Below are positions 1,861 through 18,687 of a stretch of DNA of 64,000 nucleotides, in pieces. Both the position numbers and the translations under genes were made by a program. A model generated the notes under the pieces. The model made no database searches. It saw only the letters and a program-made list of their open reading frames with translations, and was not told the origin of the DNA. Source of the DNA: Altibacter sp. (lineage in GTDB: Bacteria; Bacteroidota; Bacteroidia; Flavobacteriales; Flavobacteriaceae); NCBI RefSeq assembly GCF_019913785.1, contig NZ_JAIOHK010000060.1:1826-65825 (forward strand). Reading direction: 5' to 3'. Each line of letters starts with the position of its first letter. The first letter of the stretch is position 1.

Positions 1861-2562
1861 TTATGACAGCGTGTTTAGCGCAATATCGATCATCGTGCTA
1901 AACGTGCTTTCTCTTTCGGTTGCCGTAGTTTCCTTTTTGCTTATAAGTGAATCTGAAATGGTTAAAATTGCCAGGGCTTTTACCCTGTGTTTTGCGGCAA
2001 TGGTATATAGTCCTGCAGCTTCCATTTCAACACATAGGACTCCAAAATTGGCCCATTTCTTATACGAATCAAAAACATCGTCGTAATATTCGTCTGCAGA
2101 GAGTACATTTCCTGCTTTGATAGGAATTCCTTGATCCTGAGCATAGCGTGCCGCTTTCATAAACAACTCAAAATCTGCAGTTGGAGAGTAATCTGAATTG
2201 AAAAATCGCGAATTGTTAATCCCCGATGTAGACGAAGCCGCCATGGCAATCACGATGTCCCGAATCTTTACATCGGGTTGGTAAGAGCCGGCCGTCCCTA
2301 CACGAATGAGGTTTTTAACTCCGTAGTCATTGATAAGTTCGTGACAGTAGATCAAGGCCGAAGGAATGCCCATTCCCGTTCCTTGTACCGAAATTGGTTT
2401 CCCATTATAGGTTCCGGTATACCCTAACATACCACGCACATCATTATAACAGAAGGGATCCTTTAAAAATGTTTCAGCAATCCATTTGGCGCGCAATGGA
2501 TCTCCCGGCAATAAGACCGAGTCGGCTATTTCTCCTTTTTTCGCTTCAATATGTATACTCAT
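1861..2562 (-). CDS. deoD: purine nucleoside phosphorylase, DeoD type
   Basis: MSIHIEAKKGEIADSVLLPGDPLRAKWIAETFL.. and ..CVEMEAAGLY.. are typical of hexameric PNP. Start moved to ATG 2562, because the ORF-track start at 2622 would run into deoC. Confidence 0.85.
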   Translation of the reverse strand: MSIHIEAKKGEIADSVLLPGDPLRAKWIAETFLKDPFCYNDVRGMLGYTGTYNGKPISVQGTGMGIPSALIYCHELINDYGVKNLIRVGTAGSYQPDVKIRDIVIAMAASSTSGINNSRFFNSDYSPTADFELFMKAARYAQDQGIPIKAGNVLSADEYYDDVFDSYKKWANFGVLCVEMEAAGLYTIAAKHRVKALAILTISDSLISKKETTATERESTFSTMIDIALNTLS

Positions 2563-2566
2563 AGTG

Positions 2567-3211
2567 CTAGTTTGTGGTGACAATGACGATTCCGGAGGAG
2601 GTCCCAATCCTGCTAACACCAAGATCTATATAGGTCTGAGCCGTGACAGCATCTTTAATCCCTCCCGAAGCCTTTACTTTTAATTTACCATCCACGGCAT
2701 TCAGCATTAGCTTGACATCGTGAATGCTTGCTCCTCCCGTACCAAATCCTGTCGAGGTTTTTACGTAGTCTGCCCCCGCTTTCTCAGTAATATTACAGGC
2801 AATTCGTTTTTCATCGTCGGTTAAATAACAAGTTTCCAAAATAACTTTAAGGGTCTTGTCCCCGACTATTTCTTTGATGGCCGAGATTTCTTCGCGTACA
2901 CTTTTAAAAAGATTGTGCTTTAAGAAGCCAATATTCATTACCATGTCTATCTCGTGGGCACCTTCTTTTATGGCTCTTTTTGTTTCTGAACGCTTTGCCT
3001 TGGTAGAAGCGGTACCCAAAGGAAACCCAATGGTAGAAACCACTTTTATATCGGTGTTTAATAATTCGTTACTCGCTAAGAAAACATAGCAGCTATTCAC
3101 GCAGACACTGTGAAACTTATATTTTTTTGCTTCATCACACAGTTGCACTATATCATCGGGAGTGGCGGTTGGTTTCAGCAGTGTATGGTCTATGTATTTG
3201 TTTAACTCCAT
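2567..3211 (-). CDS. deoC: deoxyribose-phosphate aldolase
   Basis: 214 aa. IDHTLLKPTATPDDIVQLCDEAKKYKFHSVCVN and DYVKTSTGF (Schiff-base Lys context). Confidence 0.85.
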   Translation of the reverse strand: MELNKYIDHTLLKPTATPDDIVQLCDEAKKYKFHSVCVNSCYVFLASNELLNTDIKVVSTIGFPLGTASTKAKRSETKRAIKEGAHEIDMVMNIGFLKHNLFKSVREEISAIKEIVGDKTLKVILETCYLTDDEKRIACNITEKAGADYVKTSTGFGTGGASIHDVKLMLNAVDGKLKVKASGGIKDAVTAQTYIDLGVSRIGTSSGIVIVTTN

Positions 3212-4905: not shown

Positions 4906-4917
4906 TGATAAAAATCA
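4906..4917. promoter_or_regulatory. FNR/FixK-like box TGATAAAAATCA
   Basis: Lies in the divergent region. Centre is 45.5 nt from the kinase start (4957) and 61.5 nt from the TerB-like start (4850). Confidence 0.6.
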
Positions 4918-4956: not shown

Positions 4957-6180
4957 ATGAAGGTTTTTGAGGAGAAAAAAGGGAATATTTTTAAATTACT
5001 TTCTGAAGCTATTTCGGAAGGCATTATTATTGTGAATGTACAGCAAGAAATTGTCGCTTCCAATGGTGTTGCTAATGTAATGTTTGGCTACGAAGAAAAT
5101 GAGTTATTGGGTTCGCAACTTAATCGTTTAATTCCGAAGGATTATCGAAAAAAGCATACAGGTCATTTTGATAGTTTTATTGAAAAAAGCGACGTGAGGC
5201 AAATGGGGCATGGTCGCGATTTGTATGGTTTACGTAAGGATGGTACTGCTTTTCCCCTGGAAGCTGGATTAAATCCATTTGAAATTTATGAGAATCAATA
5301 TGTCATGGCTTTGGTGAGTGATATTACCATTCGGAAAAGGCAAGAACAGGAAATCAAAGAACTTAATGAGAGTTTAGAACTTCGTATTCAGCAAAGAACA
5401 ACAGAATTACGCCATAGTATTTCAGAATTAAAGGAAGAAGTGGCAAAGCGTAAGGAAGCAGAAAATAGAATAAAGGAATCACTTCGTAAGGAACGTGAAT
5501 TAAATGAACTTAAAACGAAATTCCTTTCATTGGTATCTCACGAATTCAAGACACCTTTAAGCGGAATTTTAACCTCGGCAACGCTGGTTGGAAAATACAC
5601 GTTGACAGAACACCAGGAAAAAAGAGATAAACACCTAAAGACGATCCAAAGCAAGGTTAAATATTTGAATAATATATTAGACGATTTTCTTTCTATTGAG
5701 CGCATTGAAACGGGTAAGGAAACGTATAAATTTAGTCTTTTTCCATTGAGTAAGGTGGTAAATGAGGTTATTTACGACGCTAATATGTTGTTGAAGGAAG
5801 GGCAAAAAATAAACTATCCTCAAAATATCGATGATATTATTGTTGAGTTTGATGAAAAAATATTGGAACTTGTTTTGACCAATTTAATTAATAATGCGAT
5901 TAAATACTCACCCGGAAATACCGCTATCGATGTTCGGGTTGATCAGAAAAAATCGAGCTTGTGTATTAGTATTCAGGATGAAGGCATGGGTATTCCAGCA
6001 AAAGAACAAAAGTTTATCTTTAACCGTTACTTTAGGGCAGAAAATGCCTTGTTGGATCAAGGTACGGGTATTGGACTCAATATTGCGAAAAGCCATTTGG
6101 AAAACCTAGGTGGGACAATTACCTTTACCAGCAAAGAAAATGAAGGAAGCATCTTTAAAGTAGAAATACCAATTAAGTAG
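4957..6180 (+). CDS. PAS-domain sensor histidine kinase (FixL-like PAS)
   Basis: N-terminal PAS (..KKHTGHFDSFIE..MGHGRDLYGLRKDGTAFPLEAGLNPF..), a coiled-coil linker, H-box SHEFKTPLS, N-box NLINNAIKYS, G1 DEGMGI and G2 GTGIGL. No TM segment, so it is predicted cytoplasmic. Confidence 0.85.
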   Translation: MKVFEEKKGNIFKLLSEAISEGIIIVNVQQEIVASNGVANVMFGYEENELLGSQLNRLIPKDYRKKHTGHFDSFIEKSDVRQMGHGRDLYGLRKDGTAFPLEAGLNPFEIYENQYVMALVSDITIRKRQEQEIKELNESLELRIQQRTTELRHSISELKEEVAKRKEAENRIKESLRKERELNELKTKFLSLVSHEFKTPLSGILTSATLVGKYTLTEHQEKRDKHLKTIQSKVKYLNNILDDFLSIERIETGKETYKFSLFPLSKVVNEVIYDANMLLKEGQKINYPQNIDDIIVEFDEKILELVLTNLINNAIKYSPGNTAIDVRVDQKKSSLCISIQDEGMGIPAKEQKFIFNRYFRAENALLDQGTGIGLNIAKSHLENLGGTITFTSKENEGSIFKVEIPIK

Positions 6181-6186
6181 ATACAA

Positions 6187-7245
6187 ATGAAAACAATCCT
6201 TATCATCGAAGATGATGCAGCCTTGCGAGAAAACACGGCAGAGTTGTTAGAACTTTCAAACTTTAATGTCCTTACGGCACCTAATGGGAAATTAGGGATT
6301 GAAGTGGCAAAAAAGGAGCAGCCGGATATTATTGTTTGTGATATTATGATGCCCGAGGTAGATGGATATGGCGTGTTAGAAGCGCTTAATTCGGATGCAT
6401 TGACCAATCAAATTCCGTTTATATTTCTTTCGGCAAAAACGGAACATAAAGAAGTTCGCAAAGGAATGGATATGGGTGCCGATGATTACCTCACAAAACC
6501 GTTTGATGAAGAAGAACTTATAAGTGCGGTTGAAAGTAGGCTGGCCAAAGCAAGTTTGCTTGAACAAAAGATTAAAAATCAAAATGCCCAAACGGTTCAT
6601 GAAAATGATGATGATAGCCTGCGAAACTTGAATGAACTTAAAAATTTCTTCGATGATTACGGCAGTATTTTAACTTTTAAAAAGGGAGCCAGTATCTATA
6701 AACTTGGGGAGCATTCCAATAATATTTTCCTTATTTTAAAGGGGGTTGTAAAAAGTCATAAGATGGATGAAAGCGGAAAAGAACTCACCACGGCATTGCT
6801 TAAAGCCGATGATTTTTTGGGTTTCACCTCCTTCGATGAGAATGTTCCCTATACCGAGTCGGCTACGGCGGTAGAAAATGTAGAGCTCGCTGCAATCTCA
6901 AAAATGCAACTTAAGGAAGTGTTGGGTAAAAGTCAGGGGGTATCACTCGAATTAATGAACGTACTTACCGATAATCTTTCAGAAATAAAGGAACATCTCC
7001 TTCAAATGGCCTATGGTTCGGTGCGTAAGAAAACTGCACAAACTATTCTTCAGTTTGCCGAAATACTGGGTAAAACATCGGAAGACACCATTAAAATTTC
7101 GCGTAACGATCTGGCCAGTGTAGCCGGAATTGCTACAGAAAGCCTTATTAGAACCTTGTCAGGTTTTAAGAAAGACGGCCTCATTGAAATTGAGGGGAGA
7201 AACATAAAAATTTTGGATCTTCAGCAACTTCAATTAATTGAATAG
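6187..7245 (+). CDS. response regulator with REC domain fused to Crp/Fnr-type cNMP-binding-like domain and HTH
   Basis: REC has D9-D10, phospho-acceptor D52 (IIVCDIMMP), LSAK and TKPF. It is followed by a beta-roll effector domain (FKKGASIYKLGEHSNNIFLILKGVVK) and a Crp-type HTH (ISRNDLASVAGIATESLIRTLSGFKKDGLI). Starts 7 nt after the kinase gene. Confidence 0.85.
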   Translation: MKTILIIEDDAALRENTAELLELSNFNVLTAPNGKLGIEVAKKEQPDIIVCDIMMPEVDGYGVLEALNSDALTNQIPFIFLSAKTEHKEVRKGMDMGADDYLTKPFDEEELISAVESRLAKASLLEQKIKNQNAQTVHENDDDSLRNLNELKNFFDDYGSILTFKKGASIYKLGEHSNNIFLILKGVVKSHKMDESGKELTTALLKADDFLGFTSFDENVPYTESATAVENVELAAISKMQLKEVLGKSQGVSLELMNVLTDNLSEIKEHLLQMAYGSVRKKTAQTILQFAEILGKTSEDTIKISRNDLASVAGIATESLIRTLSGFKKDGLIEIEGRNIKILDLQQLQLIE

Positions 7246-8216: not shown

Positions 8217-8228
8217 TGATAATTATCA
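8217..8228. promoter_or_regulatory. FNR/FixK-like box TGATAATTATCA
   Basis: Centre is 64.5 nt upstream of usp 8287, the first gene of the usp-usp-usp-ATPcone-MBL string. Confidence 0.6.
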
Positions 8229-8286: not shown

Positions 8287-9135
8287 ATGAGAAAGGTGTT
8301 AATTCCAACCGATTTTTCTGAGAACGCGATGAACGCGATTAAATATGCAATGGAGCTATTTAAATACGAGCGAAGCGAGTTTACAATTATGCATGCCTTC
8401 GCCGATGAGGTTTATGAAAACAACCTTGAAATGTCCCGCGAGCTTTTCGAAGAATACAAAGAAAAAGTGAAAGAGAGTTCCGACAAGGAATTGCAACAGG
8501 TATTAAGCGAAATGTTGGAAATTTCACCCAATCCTCGACACGAATATAATTTCATTTCGGTTTTTGGAAGTTTGGTAGATGAAGCCAATGATTTTGTAGA
8601 TAAGGAGAACATCGATGTTTTGGTTATGGGAACCAAAGGCGAAACAGATGATCGTAATCTTACGTTTGGCAGCAATACCTTGCAGGTAATTAAATATGTA
8701 AAATGTCCCGTATTGGCTATTCCGTCGACGTTTCACGATGTACATACAAAACGAATTCTCTTCCCAACAGATTACCTATTGCCTTTTCAAAGGCGAGAGA
8801 TAAAACTCCTGAGTACCATTGCCAAGAACTATGCGGCCACGATCAATTTTTTATATGTTTCCGATTTTAAAAAGATGTCCTTTAGACAATTGGATAATAA
8901 GTCGCTTATTGAATGTTATCTGGTTGATAACAATACTGCTTTTTATACCGAAGCCGGTACAGATATCACCAAGGGAGTCAATGAGTTTATTAAAAAGCAC
9001 AATGCCGATATGCTCGTAATGGTAAACACTAGACGATCGTATTTGGAAAATGTACTATACACCTCAACCATTCAAAAGATGGGATTGAACGTTCAAATTC
9101 CTTTTTTGGTGCTTCAAAATTTACCCCGATATTAA
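8287..9135 (+). CDS. universal stress protein, tandem Usp domains
   Basis: MRKVLIPTDFSENAMNAIKYA.. and VMGTKGETDDRNLTFGSNT. Paralogue of the neighbouring usp genes. Confidence 0.85.
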   Translation: MRKVLIPTDFSENAMNAIKYAMELFKYERSEFTIMHAFADEVYENNLEMSRELFEEYKEKVKESSDKELQQVLSEMLEISPNPRHEYNFISVFGSLVDEANDFVDKENIDVLVMGTKGETDDRNLTFGSNTLQVIKYVKCPVLAIPSTFHDVHTKRILFPTDYLLPFQRREIKLLSTIAKNYAATINFLYVSDFKKMSFRQLDNKSLIECYLVDNNTAFYTEAGTDITKGVNEFIKKHNADMLVMVNTRRSYLENVLYTSTIQKMGLNVQIPFLVLQNLPRY

Positions 9136-9151
9136 TGTTAAGTCAATTACA

Positions 9152-10003
9152 ATGAAAAAGATACTAGTCCCCACCGATTTTTCCGACAATGCCTACAACG
9201 CCATTCAATATGCCATGAAGCTTTTTGAAAAAGAAACATGTACCTTCTATTTGTTGAATACGTTTACTCCTGCTGCGTACAATGTGGGTGCCATGGCCGA
9301 CAGCTATTCGGCATTGCGCCTTCAGGAAATTGTTAAGGAAAATTCTGAAAATGAATTAGCCAGAATTGAAAAAAGCATCAAAAAAGAGTTTAACAATCCA
9401 AAACACAGTTTCGAAAAAATTGCCAGTTTCAATCTGCTGGTTATGGAAATTTTAGATATTATAGAGACTCATGATATAGATTTAATTGTAATGGGAACCC
9501 AAGGGGCTACAGGTGCTAAAGAAGTATTCTTGGGGACACATACTACATTCACTATTAAAAAGGTAAAATGTCCTGTGATAGCGGTGCCTTCCGGGTTTAC
9601 CTATGAAACCCCTAAAGAGATTTTATTTCCCACCGATTTTCGATTGAGTACGTCAAACAGATATTTGAAACTTATCAAAGATATCTGTGATTCGCATGTC
9701 GCCAGATTACATATTTTAAATGCCTATTACGAACCACTTGACGAAGAACAAAACAAGGTAAAGGACTTTTTGGATCAATACTTTAAAGGAAATGCCCACT
9801 TATTTCACTTGGCAGAAGATACAGATGTATTGGGGGCGATCGAAACCTTTCAGGTAAAACATAAGATCAATTTCTTAATTATGATCCACAATAAACATTC
9901 CTTCTTCGAAAACATGCTTTTTAAACCTGTTGTCAATCAAGTGGCCTACCATACCAATATTCCATTTTTAGTGATTCCTTCGGAACAACGAATGCTTCAC
10001 TAA
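9152..10003 (+). CDS. universal stress protein, tandem Usp domains
   Basis: MKKILVPTDFSDNAYNAIQYA.. and VMGTQGATGAKEVFLGTHT. Confidence 0.85.
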   Translation: MKKILVPTDFSDNAYNAIQYAMKLFEKETCTFYLLNTFTPAAYNVGAMADSYSALRLQEIVKENSENELARIEKSIKKEFNNPKHSFEKIASFNLLVMEILDIIETHDIDLIVMGTQGATGAKEVFLGTHTTFTIKKVKCPVIAVPSGFTYETPKEILFPTDFRLSTSNRYLKLIKDICDSHVARLHILNAYYEPLDEEQNKVKDFLDQYFKGNAHLFHLAEDTDVLGAIETFQVKHKINFLIMIHNKHSFFENMLFKPVVNQVAYHTNIPFLVIPSEQRMLH

Positions 10004-10018
10004 ATAAAACCAAGATAT

Positions 10019-10825
10019 ATGAAGAAGAGAATTCTAATCCCCACCGATTTTTCTAAAAATGCCTGGAATGCAATTGCATATGCCGCTGATCTGTACAAAC
10101 GAGAAGCAGTAGATTTTTATATTGTACACGCCTTCGGTAAATCAAGATCGAGCACAGCCGATCAACAGGCTGAAATCGGACTTCAGAAAACGCTAAAACT
10201 TCTCGAAATAAAAACAACATACCCTAACCATACTTATTTTACACTTGCTTTAGATATGCTACCACTTAGAGCAATCAAAGAAACCGTAGAGCGTAAAGAT
10301 ATCGAATTGGTCGTGATGGGGACCAAGGGAGAAACAGATGATAAGGATGTCTTCTACGGAAGCAACACGGTCGACGCCATGGAAAAGGTGCGAAACTGCC
10401 CGGTCTTAGCAATACCGGGAGACATTACATATCAAGACCCCAATGAAATTGTCTTTCCTACCAGTTATAAGACGCATTATAAAAGAAGAGAGCTGCGGTA
10501 TTTGTTTGAAATATCACGAATCACCAATGCACCTATTCGTATTTTGCACGTACAATCGGAGAAAAACCTGAGTCCATTGAAGCAAAGCAATAAGGAACTT
10601 TTGGAAAATTGTTTGGATGGGACTAATTATTCCTTTCATTGGTTGGAGAATGTGAGTGTGCAAGAAGGCCTTTTCAATTTTGTTTCTCAGCGAAATAGTG
10701 GTATGATTGCCTTTATAAATAAGAAACATCAATTCTTTGGCAGTATTTTTTCAAATCCTTTAGTGAAACAATTGGGGATGTATGCAACGATTCCGGTGTT
10801 GGCATTGCACGACCTTAGAAATTAA
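10019..10825 (+). CDS. universal stress protein, tandem Usp domains
   Basis: MKKRILIPTDFSKNAWNAIAYA.. and VMGTKGETDDKDVFYGSNT. Confidence 0.85.
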   Translation: MKKRILIPTDFSKNAWNAIAYAADLYKREAVDFYIVHAFGKSRSSTADQQAEIGLQKTLKLLEIKTTYPNHTYFTLALDMLPLRAIKETVERKDIELVVMGTKGETDDKDVFYGSNTVDAMEKVRNCPVLAIPGDITYQDPNEIVFPTSYKTHYKRRELRYLFEISRITNAPIRILHVQSEKNLSPLKQSNKELLENCLDGTNYSFHWLENVSVQEGLFNFVSQRNSGMIAFINKKHQFFGSIFSNPLVKQLGMYATIPVLALHDLRN

Positions 10826-10833
10826 ATAGCAGC

Positions 10834-11685
10834 ATGGGAAAAAAACAAGAGGAATCCATTGAGGTTGTAAAGTCATCGGGGCAAATCGTCCGGTTTTCAA
10901 TTGAAAAATTGAAAAATTCGTTACGTCGCAGCGGTGCCGATGAAAGCAGTGTTCAGCATATTGTGGATGTGGTACGGGATGAATTATATCAGGGTATTTC
11001 TACCAAAGAAATTTACAACCGAGCCTTTGCCTTATTGAAAAAGAAAAAATCAATTTACGCCTCGAAGTATAAATTGAAAAAAGCTATCTATGAATTGGGT
11101 CCCACCGGATTTCCTTTCGAAAAATTTGTAGCCTCTGTGTTGTTCTATTCAGGATACGGCGTTCAAACGGGTCAAATCTTACAAGGAAAATGCGTAACGC
11201 ATGAAGTAGATGTAGTGGCTCACAAAAATGGACAGTACATTGTGGCCGAATGCAAATTTCACAATGTGGAGGGAAGAAACTGTGATGTGAAGGTGCCGCT
11301 GTATATTCATTCTAGGTATCAAGACATTCTAAAATTTTATGAAAAGGAAATTCAACCGGGAAAGACCCCTAATGAAGGATGGGTGGTTACCAATACCCGA
11401 TTTACTTCAGATGCCTTGCAATACGGCAAATGTGTAGGTTTGAATCTGTTAAGTTGGGATTATCCTATTAACGATGGTCTAAAAGATCGTATAGACAGAT
11501 TAGGACTTTACCCCATAACCGTTTCCACCTTGCTTTCTCAACGAGAAAAGCAATTTTTATTAAGTAGAGATGTGGTGCTATGCAGGGAGTTGATAAATGA
11601 TGTGTTTTATTTGGATCACCTGGGAATTTCAGAAACTAGAAAGGCAAAAATCTTAAAGGAGATAAATATGTTATGTACTACTTGA
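10834..11685 (+). CDS. ATP-cone domain protein fused to PD-(D/E)xK (Mrr-like restriction-endonuclease fold) domain
   Basis: N-terminal ATP-cone-like segment (VVKSSGQIVRFSIEKLKNSLRRSGADESSVQHIVDVV..ISTKEIY). Then GFPFEKFVASVL..HEVDVVAHKNGQYIVAECKFH, which gives D..ExK nuclease-fold motifs. Confidence 0.65.
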   Translation: MGKKQEESIEVVKSSGQIVRFSIEKLKNSLRRSGADESSVQHIVDVVRDELYQGISTKEIYNRAFALLKKKKSIYASKYKLKKAIYELGPTGFPFEKFVASVLFYSGYGVQTGQILQGKCVTHEVDVVAHKNGQYIVAECKFHNVEGRNCDVKVPLYIHSRYQDILKFYEKEIQPGKTPNEGWVVTNTRFTSDALQYGKCVGLNLLSWDYPINDGLKDRIDRLGLYPITVSTLLSQREKQFLLSRDVVLCRELINDVFYLDHLGISETRKAKILKEINMLCTT

Positions 11686-11686
11686 T

Positions 11687-13057
11687 ATGGAATCGATTAA
11701 AATTCATTTTTTAGGAGCGGCCGGAACTGTAACCGGATCGAAATACTTACTGGAGACACCACAACAGAATATCTTGATCGATTGTGGTATGTTTCAGGGG
11801 CTTAAAGAATTGCGGGAGAAGAATTGGGAGCACTTGCCCATTGATGTAGCCTCTATCGATGTGGTCTTATTAACACATGGACATTTGGACCATACCGGAT
11901 ACTTGCCCAGATTGGTAAAACAGGGATTTCGCGGCAAAATAATTGGGACGGCACCTACTTTGGCTATTACAAAGATTATTTTGTTGGACAGTGCCAAGAT
12001 TCATGAAGAAGAGGCCCAAAGGGCTAACGAAGAAGGTTATTCAAAACACCATCCTGCCCAACCGTTTTATACCATCAAAGAAGCAGAAGTAACACTTGGA
12101 TTTTTTCAGCAGAAGGAAAAAGAGCAGTGGCATTCACTAACTGAAGATATTTCCTATAGGTTTTTGTACAACGGTCATATTATTGGAGCCACCTTTATCG
12201 AATTAAACCTCTTCGGAAAGCTATTCGTTTTTTCGGGAGATATTGGAAGAGAAAGTGATCTGTTATTGTTTCCGCCGGAACGCCCTACTCGGGCCGATTA
12301 TCTTTTTATTGAAAGCACCTATGGTAATAAATTGCACCCTGCGGAAAGCGTTTCAGAAAAACTGGTAGCGCTCATTTCACAAACCATTCATCAAAGAGGC
12401 GCCTTGATAATTCCTTCTTTTGCGGTAGAACGACTCCAAACTTTGATGTTTATCCTTTGGAAACTGTACAATGAAAATCGAATCCCTAACATTCCAATTT
12501 TTATTGACAGCCCTATGGGAAACAACGTACTATCTGTTTTTGAAAGCTTTCCCGATTGGCATAAAATTCCGCCGAAGGACTTTAGTGCCATGCAGCGTAG
12601 AATGAATATTATTACTTCCTACAAAGAAACCTGGGAAACTATTGACAATCCACAACCAAAAGTGGTGATTGCAGGAAGTGGTATGGTTACCGGAGGCAGG
12701 GTGTTAACCTATTTGCAGCAGCTTATAGATAAACCGGAAACGGCAGTTTTATTAGTTGGCTATCAAGCCGAAGGAACCCGCGGGCGGCAGTTATTGGAAG
12801 GAGCTCACGAATTAAAATTCTTCGGAAAGTATCGAGAAGTAAAAGCTCAGATTCATCATATTGAAAGTTTGTCGGCCCACGCAGATCAGCAAGGTTTGTT
12901 GGATTGGACGAGTCATATTAAAAACAATCCTGAAGATGTATTTTTAGTTCACGGTGAAGCTACTGCTCAAGATGCCCTTCGTGTTAAGTTTATGGATACC
13001 TATGGCTGGAAGGTGCAAATTCCGAAGCTATATGAAATAGTTGAGATTGAGATCTAA
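11687..13057 (+). CDS. MBL-fold metallo-hydrolase with beta-CASP / RNA-specificity domain (RNase J/CPSF-like)
   Basis: 456 aa. Motif LLTHGHLDHTGYLP (HxHxDH), FIESTYG, a beta-CASP segment and the C-terminal SAHAD motif (ESLSAHADQQGL). Confidence 0.8.
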   Translation: MESIKIHFLGAAGTVTGSKYLLETPQQNILIDCGMFQGLKELREKNWEHLPIDVASIDVVLLTHGHLDHTGYLPRLVKQGFRGKIIGTAPTLAITKIILLDSAKIHEEEAQRANEEGYSKHHPAQPFYTIKEAEVTLGFFQQKEKEQWHSLTEDISYRFLYNGHIIGATFIELNLFGKLFVFSGDIGRESDLLLFPPERPTRADYLFIESTYGNKLHPAESVSEKLVALISQTIHQRGALIIPSFAVERLQTLMFILWKLYNENRIPNIPIFIDSPMGNNVLSVFESFPDWHKIPPKDFSAMQRRMNIITSYKETWETIDNPQPKVVIAGSGMVTGGRVLTYLQQLIDKPETAVLLVGYQAEGTRGRQLLEGAHELKFFGKYREVKAQIHHIESLSAHADQQGLLDWTSHIKNNPEDVFLVHGEATAQDALRVKFMDTYGWKVQIPKLYEIVEIEI

Positions 13058-13071
13058 TTCTACCGAAGCTC

Positions 13072-13914
13072 TTAAAGCTTGCAAAGGTTTTTAACCTCTT
13101 CTAGAATACGTTCGATGCGCTGAGAGGAAACACCTATTTTATCCAGAATACTACTGACTTCAAAAAGTTCCTTGACTAGAATCACATCATTGTCAATAAG
13201 TTGTGTCTTTTCGCTTTTGGAAAGGGTGGTTAATGTTGTAATGGGATAAAGTCCAAATTTATCGACATTCTGTTTTATACCGCTATTTTTTGGATAGTCC
13301 CAGCTAAGTAAATGTAAGCCTACACATTTGGCATAGTCTATTGCATCTTGAGAAAAACGCGTATTGGTGATCAACCATCCTTGTTTTAAATGAGATGCTT
13401 TTTTAGGGTCTTTGTTCCATTGTTCTTGAATGTCTAAAAATCTGGAATTGATATACAAGGGAACTCTCACATTGCTCACCCCTTTGGGATCTGAGTGAAA
13501 CTTACATTCGATAGCGTATGTATTTCCATCTTTTTCAGCTAAGACGTCAATTTCGTGAGTAACACATTTACCCTTTAAAACGATTCCGACTCGAGTGGTA
13601 TAATCGTGTTGTTTAAGCAATGCGCTTACTAAGCGTTCAAATGGAAATCCAGTAGGGCCTAAATCGAATATGGCGCGTTTTAAACTGTAGCGCGATGCCG
13701 ATATTCTATTGTATTTTTTTAATATGGAAAAGGCTTTCTTATAGATTTCATTTGAAGAAATACCGTCATAAATTGAAGGTTGGATTTGAGTAATAATGGT
13801 GTCAACTTCATTATTAGTTGCCCCTGATGACTGAAGTGACTGTTTTAATTTTTGAACTGAAAATGGTTCAGCTTCTTCGGTGTTTTTCACAACAAATATT
13901 TCATTTTTAGACAT
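13072..13914 (-). CDS. ATP-cone + PD-(D/E)xK domain protein, paralogue of 10834..11685
   Basis: Collinear with 10834..11685 over the full length, roughly half the residues identical by eye (GPTGFPFE, KGKCVTHEIDVLAEKDGNTYAIECKFH, LLSWDYP, GLYPIT). Confidence 0.65.
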   Translation of the reverse strand: MSKNEIFVVKNTEEAEPFSVQKLKQSLQSSGATNNEVDTIITQIQPSIYDGISSNEIYKKAFSILKKYNRISASRYSLKRAIFDLGPTGFPFERLVSALLKQHDYTTRVGIVLKGKCVTHEIDVLAEKDGNTYAIECKFHSDPKGVSNVRVPLYINSRFLDIQEQWNKDPKKASHLKQGWLITNTRFSQDAIDYAKCVGLHLLSWDYPKNSGIKQNVDKFGLYPITTLTTLSKSEKTQLIDNDVILVKELFEVSSILDKIGVSSQRIERILEEVKNLCKL

Positions 13915-13959
13915 AGTGCATTGTTTTAGTATTTTAAGATTTCAGTAATTTTTAAAGGT

Positions 13960-13971
13960 TGGTCGATATCA
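13960..13971. promoter_or_regulatory. degenerate FNR/FixK-like box TGGTCGATATCA
   Basis: One core mismatch. Centre is about 51 nt upstream of the second ATP-cone gene start (13914, minus strand). Confidence 0.3.
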
Positions 13972-14071
13972 ATTTTAGGGTCATAACAGGATATTGTGCA
14001 GGTATTTAACCAATCAAGATCAAAAGCAACAAATCTTTATAATTGTTAAAAAAAGAGGTGTCAACCCGCTT

Positions 14072-14656
14072 TTATGCAAAGGCTATAAGTCCTTTTATCA
14101 ATGAATATATTATCGCTGTTACCAATCCCACTAAAAAAATGACCACCGAAAGGACCAATATTTTTTGTTTTAGAGCGATAGTCTTACCCAAAAAATAAAG
14201 ATCGTCTATCATTTCTTCATAGATCGTATGCCCTGTCTCCATAATACGTTTAAATTCAGATTTGAACTCTTCTAAGGATAGCGAAGAAAAATTTTCTGCA
14301 TATAAAACTCCTTTATAACCACTTTTTTTAAAAGCTCTGCCAAAGTAACGATGTGGGAGCATACTAAATAAGGCAAAAACCATAGAGAGCATACTACAAA
14401 TTAGTAATGCCCTAATGCCTAGTACAATTTTAAATCCATCATTATTCGGTGCTATAAATAGGACCCCCAATAATAGGGAAGTGATTATTGAGTTAACGGT
14501 GAGTACGATCCTTGCTTTATTATCAACCATTTTTAACAGATTATAATGATTTCGGGAAAGTGTTCTAAACAACGTTTGAACACCTCGGGAATCGTACTTG
14601 TCTTGCTTTCGTTTTTTTGGCTTACTTTCAGTGTTTGATTGTTTATCGTCTTTCAT
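14072..14656 (-). CDS. small membrane protein, DUF5706/PycTM-like (tentative)
   Basis: 194 aa. Basic N-terminus, then LLKMVDNKARIVLTVNSIITSLLLG and 3-4 TM helices. Resemblance to the Pycsar-effector TM family is by eye only. Confidence 0.35.
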   Translation of the reverse strand: MKDDKQSNTESKPKKRKQDKYDSRGVQTLFRTLSRNHYNLLKMVDNKARIVLTVNSIITSLLLGVLFIAPNNDGFKIVLGIRALLICSMLSMVFALFSMLPHRYFGRAFKKSGYKGVLYAENFSSLSLEEFKSEFKRIMETGHTIYEEMIDDLYFLGKTIALKQKILVLSVVIFLVGLVTAIIYSLIKGLIAFA

Positions 14657-14688: not shown

Positions 14689-16521
14689 CTATAGATCTTC
14701 ATTAAATTTCAATTTCGGTAAAATGGTTTTATTTCCTCTTTGAACATGTTGCATTTTACACAGTATTTTGTCCAACATTTTAACCGCTTTTTCTATGTAT
14801 GGCCCTTTGTTTAACATGACACATTCTGCTCGCTGAGCCATGGCAGCATCGGTGATTTCTGCCCTTGTGGGTATTCCTTTTTTTATCATGTTTTCTAAAA
14901 CCTGAGTTGCCCAAATATCAGGCAAATGAGCAGATTCGCAAAGCTGTAGTATTTCTTCCTGAATAATGGCGAAATTTTCCCACCCTGTTTCTATGGCTAA
15001 ATCACCTCGCGCTATCATAACACCAATTGGATAATTTTCCATGGCCTTTAATATGATGCCAGGCAGATTTTTATAGGCTTCTTGCGTTTCAATTTTTAAT
15101 ATAATACCAATATTAGCATTGAGACTTTTTAGTTCATTGAGTAAATTTTCAATATCCTGTTTGTCATTGATAAACGAAAAATTAACTACATCAGCATTTT
15201 TCACAACAAATTGTAAGTCCTTTTTATCTTTATCGGTCAACTCGCTAAAACTCAATTTACTTTTGGGTAAATTTATTCCCTTATCAGCTCTTAATTTGCC
15301 ACCTTTACTTTTGGTACCGGTAATTTCTATAATTAAATACTCTGTTTGAATTTCTTTGATGACCCCTTCAATTTTACCATCATCAAAATAAATTTGCTCT
15401 TTTTCATTGACCATATTAAAAACCTCGGGCAAAGTACATGAAACATGAGCCATTTCAGTAATACTACCTTCCTGGTCATATAGAGCAGGTTCTCCCAAAA
15501 TAGGCTCTTTATCAAGCCTCAATAAATCGCCTTCAGACAAAAAGATAACTTCTTCTAATGGTAATAACTTATTAGCAGTATGCTTTTCAGAAGCAGATCC
15601 TTTTCCAAAAAATACGTTTAGCGAAGTTCCGGAAACAATAAAGGCCGATTTTTTACAATTCCCCCAACGCCCATTATTTTCTAGTTTATCAATGATGATT
15701 TTACGCCTTTTACCCCGTGAATCTTTAAAAATAATATAGGAACCAATTTGTGTTTTTTGAAGCCAATTTTTATTTATCGGAATGATAGCATCCGCTTCTT
15801 CTCCCTGAGGAGGTTGAGTGCCGTAGGGTGCCATCCAAATTTTTGCAGGAGCTACTACTTTACCTAGATCATTTTTTTTTGGCTTTATATGAATAACCTT
15901 ATGACCAGGTTTCATTTTGCCGGTCCTAATTTTGGGCCCCGCCAAATCCATCGTGATTTTGCAGTTATTCTCATGGGCTCTAATGTTATTTATTATGCTC
16001 TTCCATGTAGTTTCATCATCATGTGCGCAATTAATTCTTGCACAATCCATTCCCAAATCTATAAGTGATTTAGTAAATTGTGCGTCACTTGCAGCATTCA
16101 ATGGCTGAGTAACCATAATGGCTGTTTTTCTTTTATTTTTTATCTTACCAAAGAGAGCTTCAAAATTTTCTTTCTGGATTTTCTTTGCTTCCTTATTGGT
16201 GAGGAATATTTTTTTATCATCAGATGAATCAGTCTTCAGTAAACTATTAATAATGGTTTTAAAACTTAAAATTCTATGTAAAATACTCCCTTTAAACTCA
16301 GGTGAATTCGGCAAACCAATTTCATCAATTTTTTTTTGTAAAATATCGATACTAAACGAACGTAAGGCCAAATAATGAATTAAATTCTTAGCGCTGTTAG
16401 TATAATTAGGGTGTACACTATCTATTTGTTGTTTATACTTAGCTTCAAATTCATAAATTTTAGCAAGTATTAAATCACTTGTGACTTCAATTTCTTGTAA
16501 TTTATTTTTCGGGTAGAGCAT
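14689..16521 (-). CDS. pyruvate kinase family protein with long N-terminal extension
   Basis: RINCAHDD, MDLAGPKIRTG and IMIARGDLAIE match the PK barrel motifs. The ORF-track start at 16548 is TTG, so ATG 16521 (MLYPKNK..) is preferred. Confidence 0.7.
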   Translation of the reverse strand: MLYPKNKLQEIEVTSDLILAKIYEFEAKYKQQIDSVHPNYTNSAKNLIHYLALRSFSIDILQKKIDEIGLPNSPEFKGSILHRILSFKTIINSLLKTDSSDDKKIFLTNKEAKKIQKENFEALFGKIKNKRKTAIMVTQPLNAASDAQFTKSLIDLGMDCARINCAHDDETTWKSIINNIRAHENNCKITMDLAGPKIRTGKMKPGHKVIHIKPKKNDLGKVVAPAKIWMAPYGTQPPQGEEADAIIPINKNWLQKTQIGSYIIFKDSRGKRRKIIIDKLENNGRWGNCKKSAFIVSGTSLNVFFGKGSASEKHTANKLLPLEEVIFLSEGDLLRLDKEPILGEPALYDQEGSITEMAHVSCTLPEVFNMVNEKEQIYFDDGKIEGVIKEIQTEYLIIEITGTKSKGGKLRADKGINLPKSKLSFSELTDKDKKDLQFVVKNADVVNFSFINDKQDIENLLNELKSLNANIGIILKIETQEAYKNLPGIILKAMENYPIGVMIARGDLAIETGWENFAIIQEEILQLCESAHLPDIWATQVLENMIKKGIPTRAEITDAAMAQRAECVMLNKGPYIEKAVKMLDKILCKMQHVQRGNKTILPKLKFNEDL

Positions 16522-16623
16522 GTTCCAAAATTTTAGTTTATAAAGCAAAATAGTTGCAAAAAGCCTAGAATTACTTGTAATTGAACCTCCATGAATTAGA
16601 GGTTAAAACAATTGCATTTAGAT

Positions 16624-17544
16624 TTAAAATCTTAATATTTCCGTCATAAGCCCAAATCGGATAATATTCAGTTGTTGTTGAAAATAGATATTATAATAAT
16701 CTGCACCGTGATATAATTGGACGAAAAACCCAATATCTTCTAAAAACTTCGGATGATAGTAAAAGGTAAGACTAGCATTGAATCTATCTAAATCAAAAAA
16801 GGCTAAATCATTAAAATTATCAAGCATTATGGTTGTTTCTACTTTTAACGAAAAATTAGCCGATCTTTTTTTACTGAAAAAATCGCGATCCATCGGAAGC
16901 TTATAGGCAAAAAATGAGTTATGCCATCGAAGCCCGCTGTACAGACCATGTAGTTCTTCTTGCGTCCAACTTTTAGGGTGTATTTCCAGAGCGCTTTTAA
17001 TAAATTTTACCGCGTTCACAGTAGTGCCGTATGATGTATCGATAAAGCCGAATTCAAAAAAATTGGTTGCAAAATTTCCAGATTGGAGATTAATTTTGGG
17101 TTCGTTAACATCTAATAAAGGACCGTCTAAATAAAAATTGCCATCCTGTCCATTTGAATGATGTGCTATTCGAGCAAATACTGTGGTATGATGTGCTAGC
17201 TCTGGATAACCCATCAAATAGTAGAACGAAATTTGCGGAATATAACTAGGGGTTTTTACGGGATACGATTCTTCATTATACATCCGAATCATAATTTGTG
17301 GGGTAAGCACCATCATCATTTTTGAATCACTGCGTTGACGGATGATAAAATTAGGATTGAGATTGGCTTCAAACATTAAAGGTGCTATGTTTCCAATATC
17401 TATGGGGAAAGTAATATAGCTATCACTTTGATTTATATGTGCTATTTTCGCTAGATCAAGTCGTGGTAGGGTATCATTTTTGGTTTGGGCATAGCCAAAA
17501 CTCAGAAGAAGACAAAAGAATATTAGATTTGTAGATTTAATCAT
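16624..17544 (-). CDS. outer-membrane beta-barrel protein, phospholipase A1 (OMPLA)-like
   Basis: Signal peptide, a C-terminal ..LRF, and a HHSNGQDG motif reminiscent of the OMPLA HxSNG catalytic motif. The catalytic Asn position was not confirmed. Confidence 0.35.
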   Translation of the reverse strand: MIKSTNLIFFCLLLSFGYAQTKNDTLPRLDLAKIAHINQSDSYITFPIDIGNIAPLMFEANLNPNFIIRQRSDSKMMMVLTPQIMIRMYNEESYPVKTPSYIPQISFYYLMGYPELAHHTTVFARIAHHSNGQDGNFYLDGPLLDVNEPKINLQSGNFATNFFEFGFIDTSYGTTVNAVKFIKSALEIHPKSWTQEELHGLYSGLRWHNSFFAYKLPMDRDFFSKKRSANFSLKVETTIMLDNFNDLAFFDLDRFNASLTFYYHPKFLEDIGFFVQLYHGADYYNIYFQQQLNIIRFGLMTEILRF

Positions 17545-17932
17545 GTTTTCTTTTTAGGTACTTGTAGAACAGAAGGGCAAAAAACAAGGTGATTCCGATT
17601 CTGAAAAACAAGGCGCCAATTGTTTTGGTTTCATATAAACCACCACTATTTATATGAAAAAACAAACCAATTACAGCAATTATTAAAACCACTACAGAAA
17701 CAATTAATATTTTGTAAGCTACTTTATTCATTTTAAAGAATTCATAAACAGCGATGAGGTAGAGAAGACTGCAAATTAAATTTGCCCAAACGACAAAAGG
17801 TACATAGTTGCCTTCTTTGGCTCTAATGCCAAACCAATCAAAAATCACAGAACTACTTAAGAATAAGGTGAGCAAAGCAAATAGTGCTAAGGCAATCGCA
17901 CTTACAGTATGGACAGTTTTTTTAGTTTTCAT
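17537..17932 (-). CDS. four-TM membrane protein, unknown function
   Basis: 131 aa with four hydrophobic helices. Overlaps the LOG gene by 4 nt and the OMPLA-like gene by 8 nt, which suggests translational coupling. Confidence 0.5.
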   Translation of the reverse strand: MKTKKTVHTVSAIALALFALLTLFLSSSVIFDWFGIRAKEGNYVPFVVWANLICSLLYLIAVYEFFKMNKVAYKILIVSVVVLIIAVIGLFFHINSGGLYETKTIGALFFRIGITLFFALLFYKYLKRKHD

Positions 17933-18687
17933 TTGGCGATTGATTTATTATTAGATTCTCCAAGCCACCATTTTGGCTTTATATGTTTTCTAACTAATTT
18001 GAATTTTTTTATGGCATGTGTTTCTATATGAGTAATTAAATCTTCCACAGAATCGGTTACAAAAAGCAGTTGCATGTCTTCCGGACTGATACTTTCTCTT
18101 TCTGCCATAATTTGAATATGTTCACATAATTCCTTGTGGTATTCGGAATCAAAAATAACTACTGGGAAATCCTCAATGACTTTTGTCTGTATCAAGGTTA
18201 ATGCTTCAAAGAGCTCATCGAGCGTACCGATACCTCCGGGCATGACTACAAAAGCGTACGAATATTTTACCAAAATTACTTTTCGCAGAAAAAAGTAAGG
18301 AATGTCAATCCACTTATGGAGATATGGATTTGGTTTTTGTTCAAAGGGTAGAATTATATTACAACCCACAGAATACCCCCCTGACTCATAAGCGCCCTTA
18401 TTGGCGGCTTCCATAATACCTGGGCCGCCACCTGTCATCACGGTAAACCCCAATTTTGAAAGTTCAGCTCCTATTCTCTCTGCATTTATATAATGTTCAG
18501 AATCGTTTGTAAATCGAGCAGAGCCAAAAACAGTCACACAGGGACCAATAAAATGCATTTTCCTAAAGGCTTTTATAAAGTTGAAAAACACCTTAAATGC
18601 AAAGGTAAATTCGTTAAAACGTGATAACGGACCGCGTACGAATAAAGATTCGTCCTTTGAAAGCTTAAATTTTTGTCGTCTTTCCAT
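17929..18687 (-). CDS. LOG family (TIGR00730) Rossmann-fold nucleotide-binding protein
   Basis: GGGPGIMEAANKGA and PGGIGTLDELFE signature motifs. Confidence 0.8.
   Translation of the reverse strand: MERRQKFKLSKDESLFVRGPLSRFNEFTFAFKVFFNFIKAFRKMHFIGPCVTVFGSARFTNDSEHYINAERIGAELSKLGFTVMTGGGPGIMEAANKGAYESGGYSVGCNIILPFEQKPNPYLHKWIDIPYFFLRKVILVKYSYAFVVMPGGIGTLDELFEALTLIQTKVIEDFPVVIFDSEYHKELCEHIQIMAERESISPEDMQLLFVTDSVEDLITHIETHAIKKFKLVRKHIKPKWWLGESNNKSIAK

Follow-up and report, generated by a model that had tools for sequence, protein, structure and literature searches.

Conserved pairing of an ATP-cone nuclease with a predicted β-CASP ribonuclease in a putative low-oxygen regulon of Bacteroidota: a possible adenylate-gated route to RNA breakdown

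The 64,000-nt stretch of Altibacter DNA analysed here, referred to below as the window (assembly GCF_019913785.1, contig NZ_JAIOHK010000060.1; Flavobacteriaceae), contains a string of three tandem-domain universal stress protein (USP) genes, a gene for a protein that joins an ATP-cone to a PD-(D/E)xK nuclease domain (A), and a gene for a β-CASP metallo-β-lactamase nuclease of the TTHA0252 type (MBL). A paralogue of A, here called B, lies beyond MBL on the opposite strand (Table 1). A Pfam Usp match was obtained directly for the third usp gene, and the other two match USP probes across the related loci. The genes of the string are tightly packed: the gaps between the usp genes are 16 and 15 nt, that between the third usp gene and A is 8 nt, and the stop codon of A and the start codon of MBL are separated by 1 nt (TGA-T-ATG). 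The original prediction, made from the letters of this DNA, agrees with the open reading frame list in the positions of A and B, the length of MBL and the last two gaps. It called co-transcription of the string from the box at 8217 almost certain; we regard it as plausible, the same layout being conserved in relatives, and judge from the junction that A and MBL are probably translationally coupled.

A and B share a trio of Pfam domains, an ATP-cone, a PD-(D/E)xK nuclease domain (Mrr_cat) and an AF1548-like C-terminal domain (AF1548-like_C, PF22357), which in A span approximately residues 9-85, 90-222 and 226-283. The last of these is small, helical and probably nucleic-acid-binding. The two proteins align without gaps over 273 residues with 48% identity (E=7e-97), so the earlier estimate by eye of paralogues about half identical was accurate. 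The Mrr_cat model (PF04471, gathering threshold 21) gives 34.6 bits for B and 19.5 bits for A, and a precomputed match to it exists for many orthologues. AlphaFold2 modelling of A from an alignment of 90 sequences gave a predicted local distance difference test score (pLDDT) of 92.3 and a predicted template modelling score (pTM) of 0.86, with residues 10-85 above a pLDDT of 90. A Foldseek search of the PDB with this model returned AF1548 (PDB code 1Y88) as the top match (E=3e-15, TM 0.79), next the CARF-PD-(D/E)xK effectors Cdn1, Can2 and VC1899, and then HindIII, MspJI, McrC and the R2 endonuclease. The catalytic pattern of a Glu on helix 1, followed by (E)xD and ExK on the central β-sheet, is present and agrees with the D/E/K site predicted for AF1548. 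E96, E124, D126, E139 and K141 are invariant in 41 representatives sharing about 40% identity; a further set of 90 sequences shows no variation at D126, E139 or K141 and at least 90% conservation at E124. The catalytic D/E/K residues, on whose conservation the original prediction depended, are thus retained across divergent homologues, which argues for an active enzyme and for a catalytically competent nuclease domain in both A and B.

The N-terminal domain resembles the regulatory cones of ribonucleotide reductases (RNRs) and of NrdR. The ATP-cone model (PF03477, gathering threshold 25.8) scores 28.0 bits in A, 23.3 bits in B and 34-40 bits in other family members. The modelled N-domain of A has the fold expected of a cone, four helices in a bundle with a β-hairpin cap. 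Foldseek matches it to NrdR and to the cones of NrdA, NrdD and NrdB, from class I and class III RNRs, with a probability of 1.0, and the domain superposes on NrdR (PDB code 9GEX) with an rmsd of 1.6 Å over 81 residues. Profile-profile alignment with hhalign pairs the N-domain profile of the family with the E. coli NrdA cone (residues 1-61) at 93.5% probability; a search of the PDB with the same profile also gave a match to NrdA 1-60, consistent with the NrdA sequence used. The hhalign pairing places K13, K25, T57 and Y61 opposite NrdA K9, K21, T55 and H59, which together with R10 we take to be the nucleotide-contacting residues of NrdA. K13 and Y61 do not vary in the alignment of 90 sequences; K25 and T57 show at least 90% conservation. 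The top matches of the N-domain profile in the PDB are de novo designed helical-repeat proteins; these are spurious and arise from the repetitive second helix of the cone (SLKRSGAS-E-I--IV--I), an artefact that calls for caution in automated annotation. A single-sequence search of the PDB with the best cone-scoring family member gave no cone match. As these PDB searches are weak, we base the cone assignment on Pfam, hhalign and the fold match. Both domain assignments of the original prediction are upheld by hidden Markov model (HMM), profile-profile and fold comparison, and the cone is real but divergent, so ATP or dATP should not be assumed to be its ligand.

MBL has the domains expected of its family, with Pfam matches to Beta-Casp (1.5e-31, 109.8 bits), RMMBL (6e-19, 68.2 bits) and Lactamase_B. 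Metallo-β-lactamase motifs 1-4 are intact (D32; H64, H66, D68 and H69 in HGHLDH at 64-69; H164; D185), as are β-CASP motifs A-C (E209 in ESTYG, H398 in SAHAD starting at 396, H422 in VHGE starting at 421). Motif C is His in 103 of 106 MBL orthologues linked to an ATP-cone nuclease gene. A His at this position reportedly marks RNA-acting β-CASP enzymes and a Val the DNA-type Artemis/SNM1 enzymes, a distinction said to go back to Callebaut et al. in 2002. In the PDB the best matches of MBL are Thermus TTHA0252 (2DKF, 3.5e-68) and Cas14 (1.2e-67), followed by archaeal CPSF/FttA, INTS11 and CPSF73. It falls below every NCBIfam equivalog cutoff (Cas14 381.5 vs 800, aCPSF1 270 vs 580, RNase J approximately 17-18 bits), has neither a KH domain nor the C-terminal extension of Cas14, and reaches 39 bits with the DNA-repair β-CASP model TIGR04122. 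By domains, motifs and PDB matches alike MBL is predicted to be an intact RNA-type β-CASP nuclease closest to TTHA0252; the original prediction had placed it in the RNase J/CPSF73-type family of RNA nucleases.

We searched 1.84 billion cluster representatives (50% identity) exhaustively with an HMM of the ATP-cone nuclease family and obtained 1,473 clusters at E<=1e-3 and 536 at E<=1e-30; the best 150 clusters are nearly all full-length, at about 280 residues. Members are named in databases only as ‘ATP cone domain-containing protein’, ‘ATPase’, ‘restriction endonuclease’ or ‘Holliday junction resolvase-like’. Beyond Flavobacteriaceae, members come from Cyclobacteriaceae, Balneolaceae, Bacteroidia, Pontibacter (Cytophagia), several Patescibacteria and Criblamydia (Chlamydiota), among others. 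Among the long family members (P0348, P0286, P0295 and others) we saw no fusion to MBL, USP or phosphorylase; they carry only a Lys-rich HC2-like tail or insertions. P0348 (512 residues) has a Lys-rich N-terminal extension of about 235 residues, with a histone H1-like HC2 resemblance below the Pfam threshold, which could be an added nucleic-acid-binding tail. Full-text literature searches returned no paper on a fusion of an ATP-cone to a nuclease or restriction endonuclease and nothing on the function of AF1548 beyond a prediction of 2007; a search on AMP phosphorylase with USP likewise returned nothing on the A-type architecture. The architecture is catalogued in databases and functionally uncharacterised, as the original prediction had supposed.

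The pairing of A with MBL is strongly conserved. We probed 80 reference-genome loci, all of A-type genes from Flavobacteriaceae, with the proteins of the window: MBL follows A in 78 of them (one cut by a contig end, two with a gap of 300-450 nt), typically at a distance of -4 to +19 nt. In 72 of the 80 there are USP genes no more than 10 kb from A, usually as a same-strand array directly upstream, and a pair of genes for a PAS histidine kinase (HK) and a response regulator (RR) with cyclic-nucleotide-binding (cNMP) and Crp-type domains occurs in 43, as well as in one distant locus. The order PNP-DeoC-Trx-DUF3298-HK-RRCrp-USP...A-MBL (PNP, purine nucleoside phosphorylase) was found again in several genomes.

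The pairing also extends to distant bacteria, where the operon recurrently continues into genes of nucleotide phosphorolysis, pentose metabolism and fermentation. In Balneolaceae the ATP-cone nuclease and MBL genes overlap by 4 nt. On a Pontibacter plasmid the order is 2-hydroxyacid dehydrogenase, ATP-cone nuclease, MBL, a ‘thymidine phosphorylase family’ protein and ribose-phosphate pyrophosphokinase (PRS). The Criblamydia sequanensis cluster has overlapping junctions and reads P-type ATPase, phosphoketolase, glycogen phosphorylase, ATP-cone nuclease, MBL, phosphorylase, PRS, acetate kinase, with the nucleases and their partners flanked by glycogen phosphorylase/phosphoketolase on one side and acetate kinase on the other. 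The whole resembles a portable ‘reserve-polymer to ATP’ cassette, carried on a chlamydial plasmid. Metagenomic loci show the orders PFK, USP, ATP-cone nuclease, MBL, phosphorylase, PRS, 226-residue protein, PPK2, P-type ATPase; USP, ATP-cone nuclease, phosphorylase, PRS; and PPDK, ATP-cone nuclease beside the HK/RR-Crp pair. PFK, PPDK, 2-hydroxyacid dehydrogenase, PPK2 and P-type ATPase are recurrent neighbours. The phosphorylase scores above the cutoffs of NF003338 and TIGR02645 and at 500-506 bits against a cutoff of 535 for the AMP phosphorylase model TIGR03327; the phosphorylase/PRS pair (NF003338, NF005537) seems itself to be uncharacterised in bacteria. A second sample comprised 80 divergent metagenomic loci at 42-54% identity to the Criblamydia protein, 57 of them with at least 1.5 kb of downstream DNA. 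Among these 57, MBL lies on the same strand within 6 kb in 31 (adjacent in 27), a P-type ATPase gene is found in 16, the phosphorylase in 11 and PRS in 8. The conserved core is therefore a pair of genes, ATP-cone nuclease and β-CASP nuclease, set within a hypoxia/USP regulon. The expectation of conserved linkage to the β-CASP and usp genes held strongly for the Flavobacteriaceae and failed in Patescibacteria and in about 30% of the divergent metagenomic loci.

B does not belong to this core. The original prediction took A, MBL and B for a three-gene module with the paralogues bracketing MBL; this does not hold, as only 3 of the 80 loci, all from Aequorivita, have B no more than 10 kb from A, and B has a conserved neighbourhood of its own. 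Among the matches listed, A-type proteins are at least 73% identical to A and B-type proteins at least 65% identical to B, compared with 48% between A and B, and sequences of both types occur on the same contigs in several genomes; by these identities the two types are separate orthologous groups within Flavobacteriaceae. The B-type setting consists of ABC transporter genes, a LOG/TIGR00730-like gene, a gene for a protein of about 300 residues, B and a PycTM-like membrane protein gene. In the window it occupies the minus strand between 22589 and 13072 and is interrupted by the gene of a long-form pyruvate kinase. B abuts MBL only in Altibacter and Aequorivita, and given the separate conserved setting of B the apparent bracketing is two independent modules meeting tail-to-tail in one lineage. 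The protein of about 300 residues is encoded between the LOG-like gene and the B-type gene in three genera. A second β-CASP/RMMBL gene is found in a Flavobacterium locus (L092) between the ABC transporter genes and the LOG-like gene, that is inside a B-type module, so a B-type nuclease can also be linked to a β-CASP partner.

The PycTM-like protein adjoins the B-type gene in three further loci (L092, L006 and L165); its neighbours are pyruvate kinase and B in the window, and B and a Metallophos protein in L092. We considered a Pycsar system for this protein and rejected it: it matches the PycTM domain only, without a cNMP-binding effector domain, and no cyclase was seen among its neighbours. 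The pyruvate kinase of the window has an N-terminal extension of about 350 residues, and the metagenomic locus L165 repeats the order of the window (OMP306, pyruvate kinase, PycTM, ATP-cone nuclease).

The usp-A-MBL string is preceded by a palindromic box of the FNR/CRP type, TGATAATTATCA, whose existence the original prediction had reported. The palindrome TGATWNNWATCA occurs in 11 exact copies in the window, all intergenic, against 0.63 expected. The genes behind these boxes (Table 1) point to a low-oxygen regulon, which bears out the hypoxic setting proposed earlier, and the box appears to mark a regulon of this type that spans the entire window. In the 80 related loci the box is found 159 times where approximately 21 are expected, upstream of USP genes (68), HK genes (11), HPF genes (3) and A itself (3). 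The PAS-HK/RR-cNMP-Crp pair, which has a box of its own at 4906, is a candidate for the regulator. B had also been assigned a degenerate box. The sequence, TTGGTCGATATCAA, does exist, but its core half-site is broken and no box lies upstream of B in the three other genomes with B adjacent (L005, L006 and L008). Box matches with mismatches number 89 in the window where 77 are expected, which is no enrichment, and a function for TTGGTCGATATCAA is doubtful.

Table 1 Features of the Altibacter window and of the related loci discussed in the text
Feature	Position	Strand	Basis or remark
DeoD-type purine nucleoside phosphorylase	1861..2622	-	NCBIfam
Deoxyribose-phosphate aldolase DeoC	2567..3211	-	NCBIfam
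PAS histidine kinase	4957..6180	+	Pfam
Response-regulator/cNMP-binding/Crp-HTH regulator	6187..7245	+	Pfam
FNR/CRP-type palindromic box TGATAATTATCA	8217..8228	.	59 nt upstream of first usp gene
Tandem-domain USP gene 1	8287..9135	+	ORF list; USP probe match
Tandem-domain USP gene 2	9152..10003	+	ORF list; USP probe match
Tandem-domain USP gene 3	10019..10825	+	ORF list; Pfam Usp match
Paralogue A, ATP-cone nuclease	10834..11685	+	283 aa; ORF list
MBL, β-CASP metallo-β-lactamase nuclease, TTHA0252 type	11687..13057	+	456 aa; Pfam, motif scan
Paralogue B, ATP-cone nuclease	13072..13914	-	280 aa; three domains as in A, separate orthologous group
Degenerate box-like TTGGTCGATATCAA	13959..13972	.	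45 nt upstream of B; one mismatch to TTGAT-N4-ATCAA; function doubtful
PycTM-like (PF18967) membrane protein	14072..14656	-	194 aa; Pfam 4.2e-16, PADLOC PycTM 5e-15
Long-form pyruvate kinase (NF011314/PRK14725)	14689..16548	-	619 aa; NCBIfam 677 bits vs cutoff 642
306-aa protein, B-type upstream partner	16624..17544	-	no Pfam or NCBIfam match
LOG/TIGR00730-family nucleotide hydrolase-like protein	17929..18687	-	conserved upstream partner of B-type genes
Box	93		precedes DUF302-HPF-USP
Box	4906		precedes HK/RR-Crp pair
Box	8217		precedes usp-usp-usp-A-MBL string
Box	26575		upstream of gene string including D-2-hydroxyacid dehydrogenase
Box	30212		precedes USP and cytochrome c
Box	37695		precedes acetyl-CoA hydrolase/transferase
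Box	49137		precedes ADP-forming acetyl-CoA synthetase and cbb3-type cytochrome c
Box	51574		precedes NadA
Boxes	61106, 61265		precede CcoI/FixI-like ATPase
Box	63758
Pontibacter cluster (L093)	plasmid NZ_CP021236, 859..6597
Criblamydia sequanensis cluster (L094)	plasmid NZ_LK031773, 152..12901
Patescibacteria ATP-cone nuclease genes (L081, L087, L175)	6001..6870 in each
Protein of about 300 aa, L091	6096..6989		between LOG-like and B-type genes
Protein of about 300 aa, L092	6088..6990		between LOG-like and B-type genes
PycTM-like protein, L092	7849..8415		adjoins B-type gene
β-CASP/RMMBL gene, L092	3462..4817		between ABC transporter genes and LOG-like gene

Near one end of the window are genes for a DeoD-type PNP (subfamily model NF004489 353.6 bits, cutoff 230; deoD equivalog TIGR00107 303.6 bits, cutoff 232.25) and for DeoC (TIGR00126 263.6 bits, cutoff 117.3). 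The DeoD reading frame as listed, with a TTG start, overlaps deoC by 56 nt. Since its NCBIfam match begins at residue 21-24, translation probably starts further downstream, which would make the overlap an artefact of mechanical ORF calling. The window holds no homologue of thymidine phosphorylase, PRS, PPK2, PFK or phosphoketolase. No DNA methyltransferase is present among the annotated neighbours for about 10 kb on each side of A, MBL and B, in agreement with the original prediction.

The reading we favour, to which we give a probability of roughly 45%, is that an adenylate-gated endonuclease opens RNA for a β-CASP exonuclease and so feeds nucleotide and pentose catabolism under hypoxia. The usp-A-MBL operon would be induced by a shortage of oxygen or energy. 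Depending on its nucleotide state (ATP, dATP or lower adenylates), the cone would then shift the oligomer or conformation of the nuclease and license cleavage, in the way that RNR and NrdR switch between oligomers. Cuts made by the PD-(D/E)xK domain would leave 5'-phosphate ends, which would be preferred entry sites for β-CASP 5'-3' exonucleases, and MBL could degrade the RNA to 5'-nucleoside monophosphates; surplus rRNA or mRNA would be the likeliest target. Co-regulated or adjacent enzymes would turn the monophosphates into bases and pentose phosphate and then into ATP by substrate-level phosphorylation. In other phyla the enzymes concerned could be the AMP/thymidine-phosphorylase-like and phosphoribosyl pyrophosphate (PRPP)-synthetase-like proteins; in the Altibacter island they could be DeoD, DeoC and the LOG-like hydrolase, with pyruvate kinase for the ATP step. 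The original prediction spoke of energy-charge-dependent turnover of nucleic acids; we infer the same, and the gene context sharpens it towards nucleotide and pentose catabolism. A more far-reaching version, in which the ATP-cone acts as an energy sensor that licenses a two-enzyme degradosome to convert RNA into fermentable pentose phosphate and bases for salvage, so that RNA serves as an energy reserve in anoxia from Bacteroidota to Chlamydiota, linked in many lineages to the AMP-phosphorylase-like/PRPP-synthetase-like pair, is conceivable but doubtful.

Several observations weigh against the favoured reading. In the cone, the equivalent of NrdA R10 is variable and an invariant Tyr takes the place of H59; the N-domain profile reaches the RNR and NrdR cones among PDB sequences only at E of about 0.05-0.1, and the Pfam scores of A and B fall on either side of the threshold (28 and 23.3 vs 25.8). 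AF1548 is a structural-genomics protein without known function, so the closest structure supplies no functional annotation for A or B. The substrate could instead be DNA, given that most PD-(D/E)xK enzymes are DNases and that DeoC in the island suggests deoxyribose. The gene linkage also has gaps: MBL was not found in 2 of the 80 Flavobacteriaceae loci, B is without an MBL partner in most genomes, and 17 of the 57 metagenomic loci (about 30%) have none of the partners counted above; these include two with cyclomaltodextrinase, as well as loci with ion transporters and a divergent USP. In three Patescibacteria genomes neither MBL nor USP genes lie beside the ATP-cone nuclease gene, which instead sits in the order σ70, DUF8128, YceG, MnmA, ATP-cone nuclease, MgtC, AlaRS. 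In these reduced genomes the housekeeping setting may point to another role for the nuclease, or to a more basic one.

The same Patescibacteria orthologues, in a tRNA/translation block (MnmA, AlaRS, TrmD, KH) with no catabolic partners, fit better with a targeted, regulatory cleavage of RNA, in which stress-induced processing or growth arrest at rRNA, tRNA or mRNA sites is switched by nucleotide state, for example to halt translation in concert with ribosome hibernation by HPF. The HPF gene is itself part of this box regulon, and the β-CASP relatives CPSF73, aCPSF1 and FttA are site-specific processors. The fold likeness of A to CARF-PD-(D/E)xK nucleases, which bring about growth arrest through nucleic-acid cleavage, points the same way. 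We nevertheless consider this unlikely, as the operons with phosphorylase, PRPP synthetase and fermentation genes are more easily explained by a flux of degradation products. A further alternative directs the pathway at DNA: A and B would be nucleotide-gated DNA endonucleases and MBL a DNA exonuclease, acting in repair and maintenance of non-growing cells or in the salvage of deoxynucleosides from surplus or foreign DNA, with the cone reading dATP/ATP as in RNR and NrdR. Most PD-(D/E)xK and Mrr-like enzymes do cut DNA, the structural neighbours HindIII, MspJI, McrC and the R2 endonuclease among them; DeoC and DeoD lie in the island in a conserved arrangement, the established biology of ATP-cones is dNTP homeostasis, and one source labels members ‘Holliday junction resolvase-like’. 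The RMMBL domain and motif C His of MBL are the RNA-type signature, however, its score with the DNA-repair model is low, and no ligase, helicase, recombinase or single-stranded-DNA-binding protein genes are linked in the 80 Flavobacteriaceae or the metagenomic loci, which makes a DNA-directed pathway improbable.

The two other explanations we weighed have far less in their favour. In a defence role, A and B would be Mrr-like type IV nucleases whose cone senses infection-induced nucleotide changes, with MBL, the PycTM-like protein and the SLOG/LOG protein as co-effectors. The Mrr_cat fold, a weak PADLOC likeness to CARF_PDDEXK, Csx1 and the ZorD nuclease domain, and the presence of the PycTM-like and LDcluster4/SLOG-signature proteins near B are compatible with this. 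Yet neither A, B nor MBL has a significant PADLOC family match (best E=8.6e-6, over 57 residues), homologues number zero in 50,697 phage records and 2 in 72,556 plasmids, and no methyltransferase, cyclase or other sensor gene is adjacent. The synteny is stable and vertically inherited within a metabolic and stress regulon with an FNR-type box in 80 of 80 Flavobacteriaceae loci, and it is of the housekeeping kind in the reduced Patescibacteria genomes. With the PADLOC likeness sub-threshold and confined to the nuclease core, and the phage and plasmid searches essentially empty, we rejected defence as the principal reading and hold it to be very unlikely; the earlier conclusion that this is not classical restriction stands. 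Finally, the proteins might not cut at all and instead act, like NrdR, as nucleotide-responsive nucleic-acid-binding regulators of the operon or of MBL activity. NrdR is the closest functional precedent for an ATP-cone outside RNR, the N-domain of A superposes on it, and the C-terminal helical domain could bind DNA or RNA. The E/E-x-D/E-x-K constellation is, however, invariant in more than 40 divergent representatives and conserved in 90 further homologues, which is not expected of a degenerate, binding-only fold, and of all the readings this one seems to us the most improbable.

If adenylate-gated breakdown of RNA is correct, it would be the first role of an ATP-cone outside deoxynucleotide synthesis, with a known regulatory domain put to new use in gating a nuclease. 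A large orphan family, which includes PDB entry 1Y88, an orphan since 2004, would gain a function, and the poorly understood TTHA0252-type β-CASP nucleases of bacteria a partner and a physiological role. The question bears on survival of anoxia and on the fate of ribosomes and RNA in bacteria that are mainly or strictly aerobic, such as marine Flavobacteriia on sinking particles and environmental chlamydiae, and the conserved operon makes energy-gated breakdown directly testable.

The closest known relative of the nuclease portion is AF1548 from Archaeoglobus fulgidus, whose nuclease core and C-terminal helical domain are homologous to B residues 94-277 (E=1.4e-33) and which has the same catalytic D/E/K residues. 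AF1548 was predicted to be restriction-endonuclease-like with a D...E-x-K site in the GOS paper (2007, PMC1821046). With 199 residues it lacks the ATP-cone, since its alignment to B begins at AF1548 residue 22. The next-best structural neighbours of A, the CARF-PD-(D/E)xK nucleases of type III CRISPR systems (Can1, Can2, Card1, Cdn1 and VC1899-like), follow the same logic of an N-terminal ligand sensor joined to an Mrr/Card1-like nuclease, and there is a weak likeness by HMM. This fold can cut RNA as well as DNA. Unlike the CARF nucleases, A and B have an ATP-cone as the sensor, with a mononucleotide rather than a cyclic oligoadenylate as the presumed ligand, and are found in a stress and metabolic regulon rather than in a CRISPR or cyclase context. 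With the cones of NrdR and RNR, the N-domain of A shares its fold and the conserved equivalents of NrdA K9, K21 and T55; those cones are attached to a Zn-ribbon or a reductase, whereas that of A and B is attached to a nuclease, and the ATP-cone literature we found concerns RNR or NrdR only.

MBL has the full β-CASP/RMMBL architecture of the TTHA0252-type ribonucleases, a group that we compare with Cas14, aCPSF1/FttA, CPSF73 and RNase J; unlike Cas14 of type VII CRISPR systems, it is not accompanied by cas genes. No earlier description of the fixed partnership of MBL with an ATP-cone nuclease is known to us. In its physiological setting the regulon resembles the lxa locus of Burkholderia cenocepacia (PMC3721108), a group of genes induced by low oxygen in which USPs predominate, accompanied by acetate kinase, PFK/ribokinase, a LOG-type ‘lysine decarboxylase’ and a P-type ATPase, functions of pentose and fermentative metabolism. 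The text searched on lxa makes no mention of an ATP-cone nuclease or a β-CASP enzyme. The DosR regulon of Mycobacterium tuberculosis is likewise a low-oxygen-induced island rich in USPs, while the candidate regulator in Altibacter is not DosR but the PAS-HK and RR-cNMP-Crp pair, associated with an FNR-type box.

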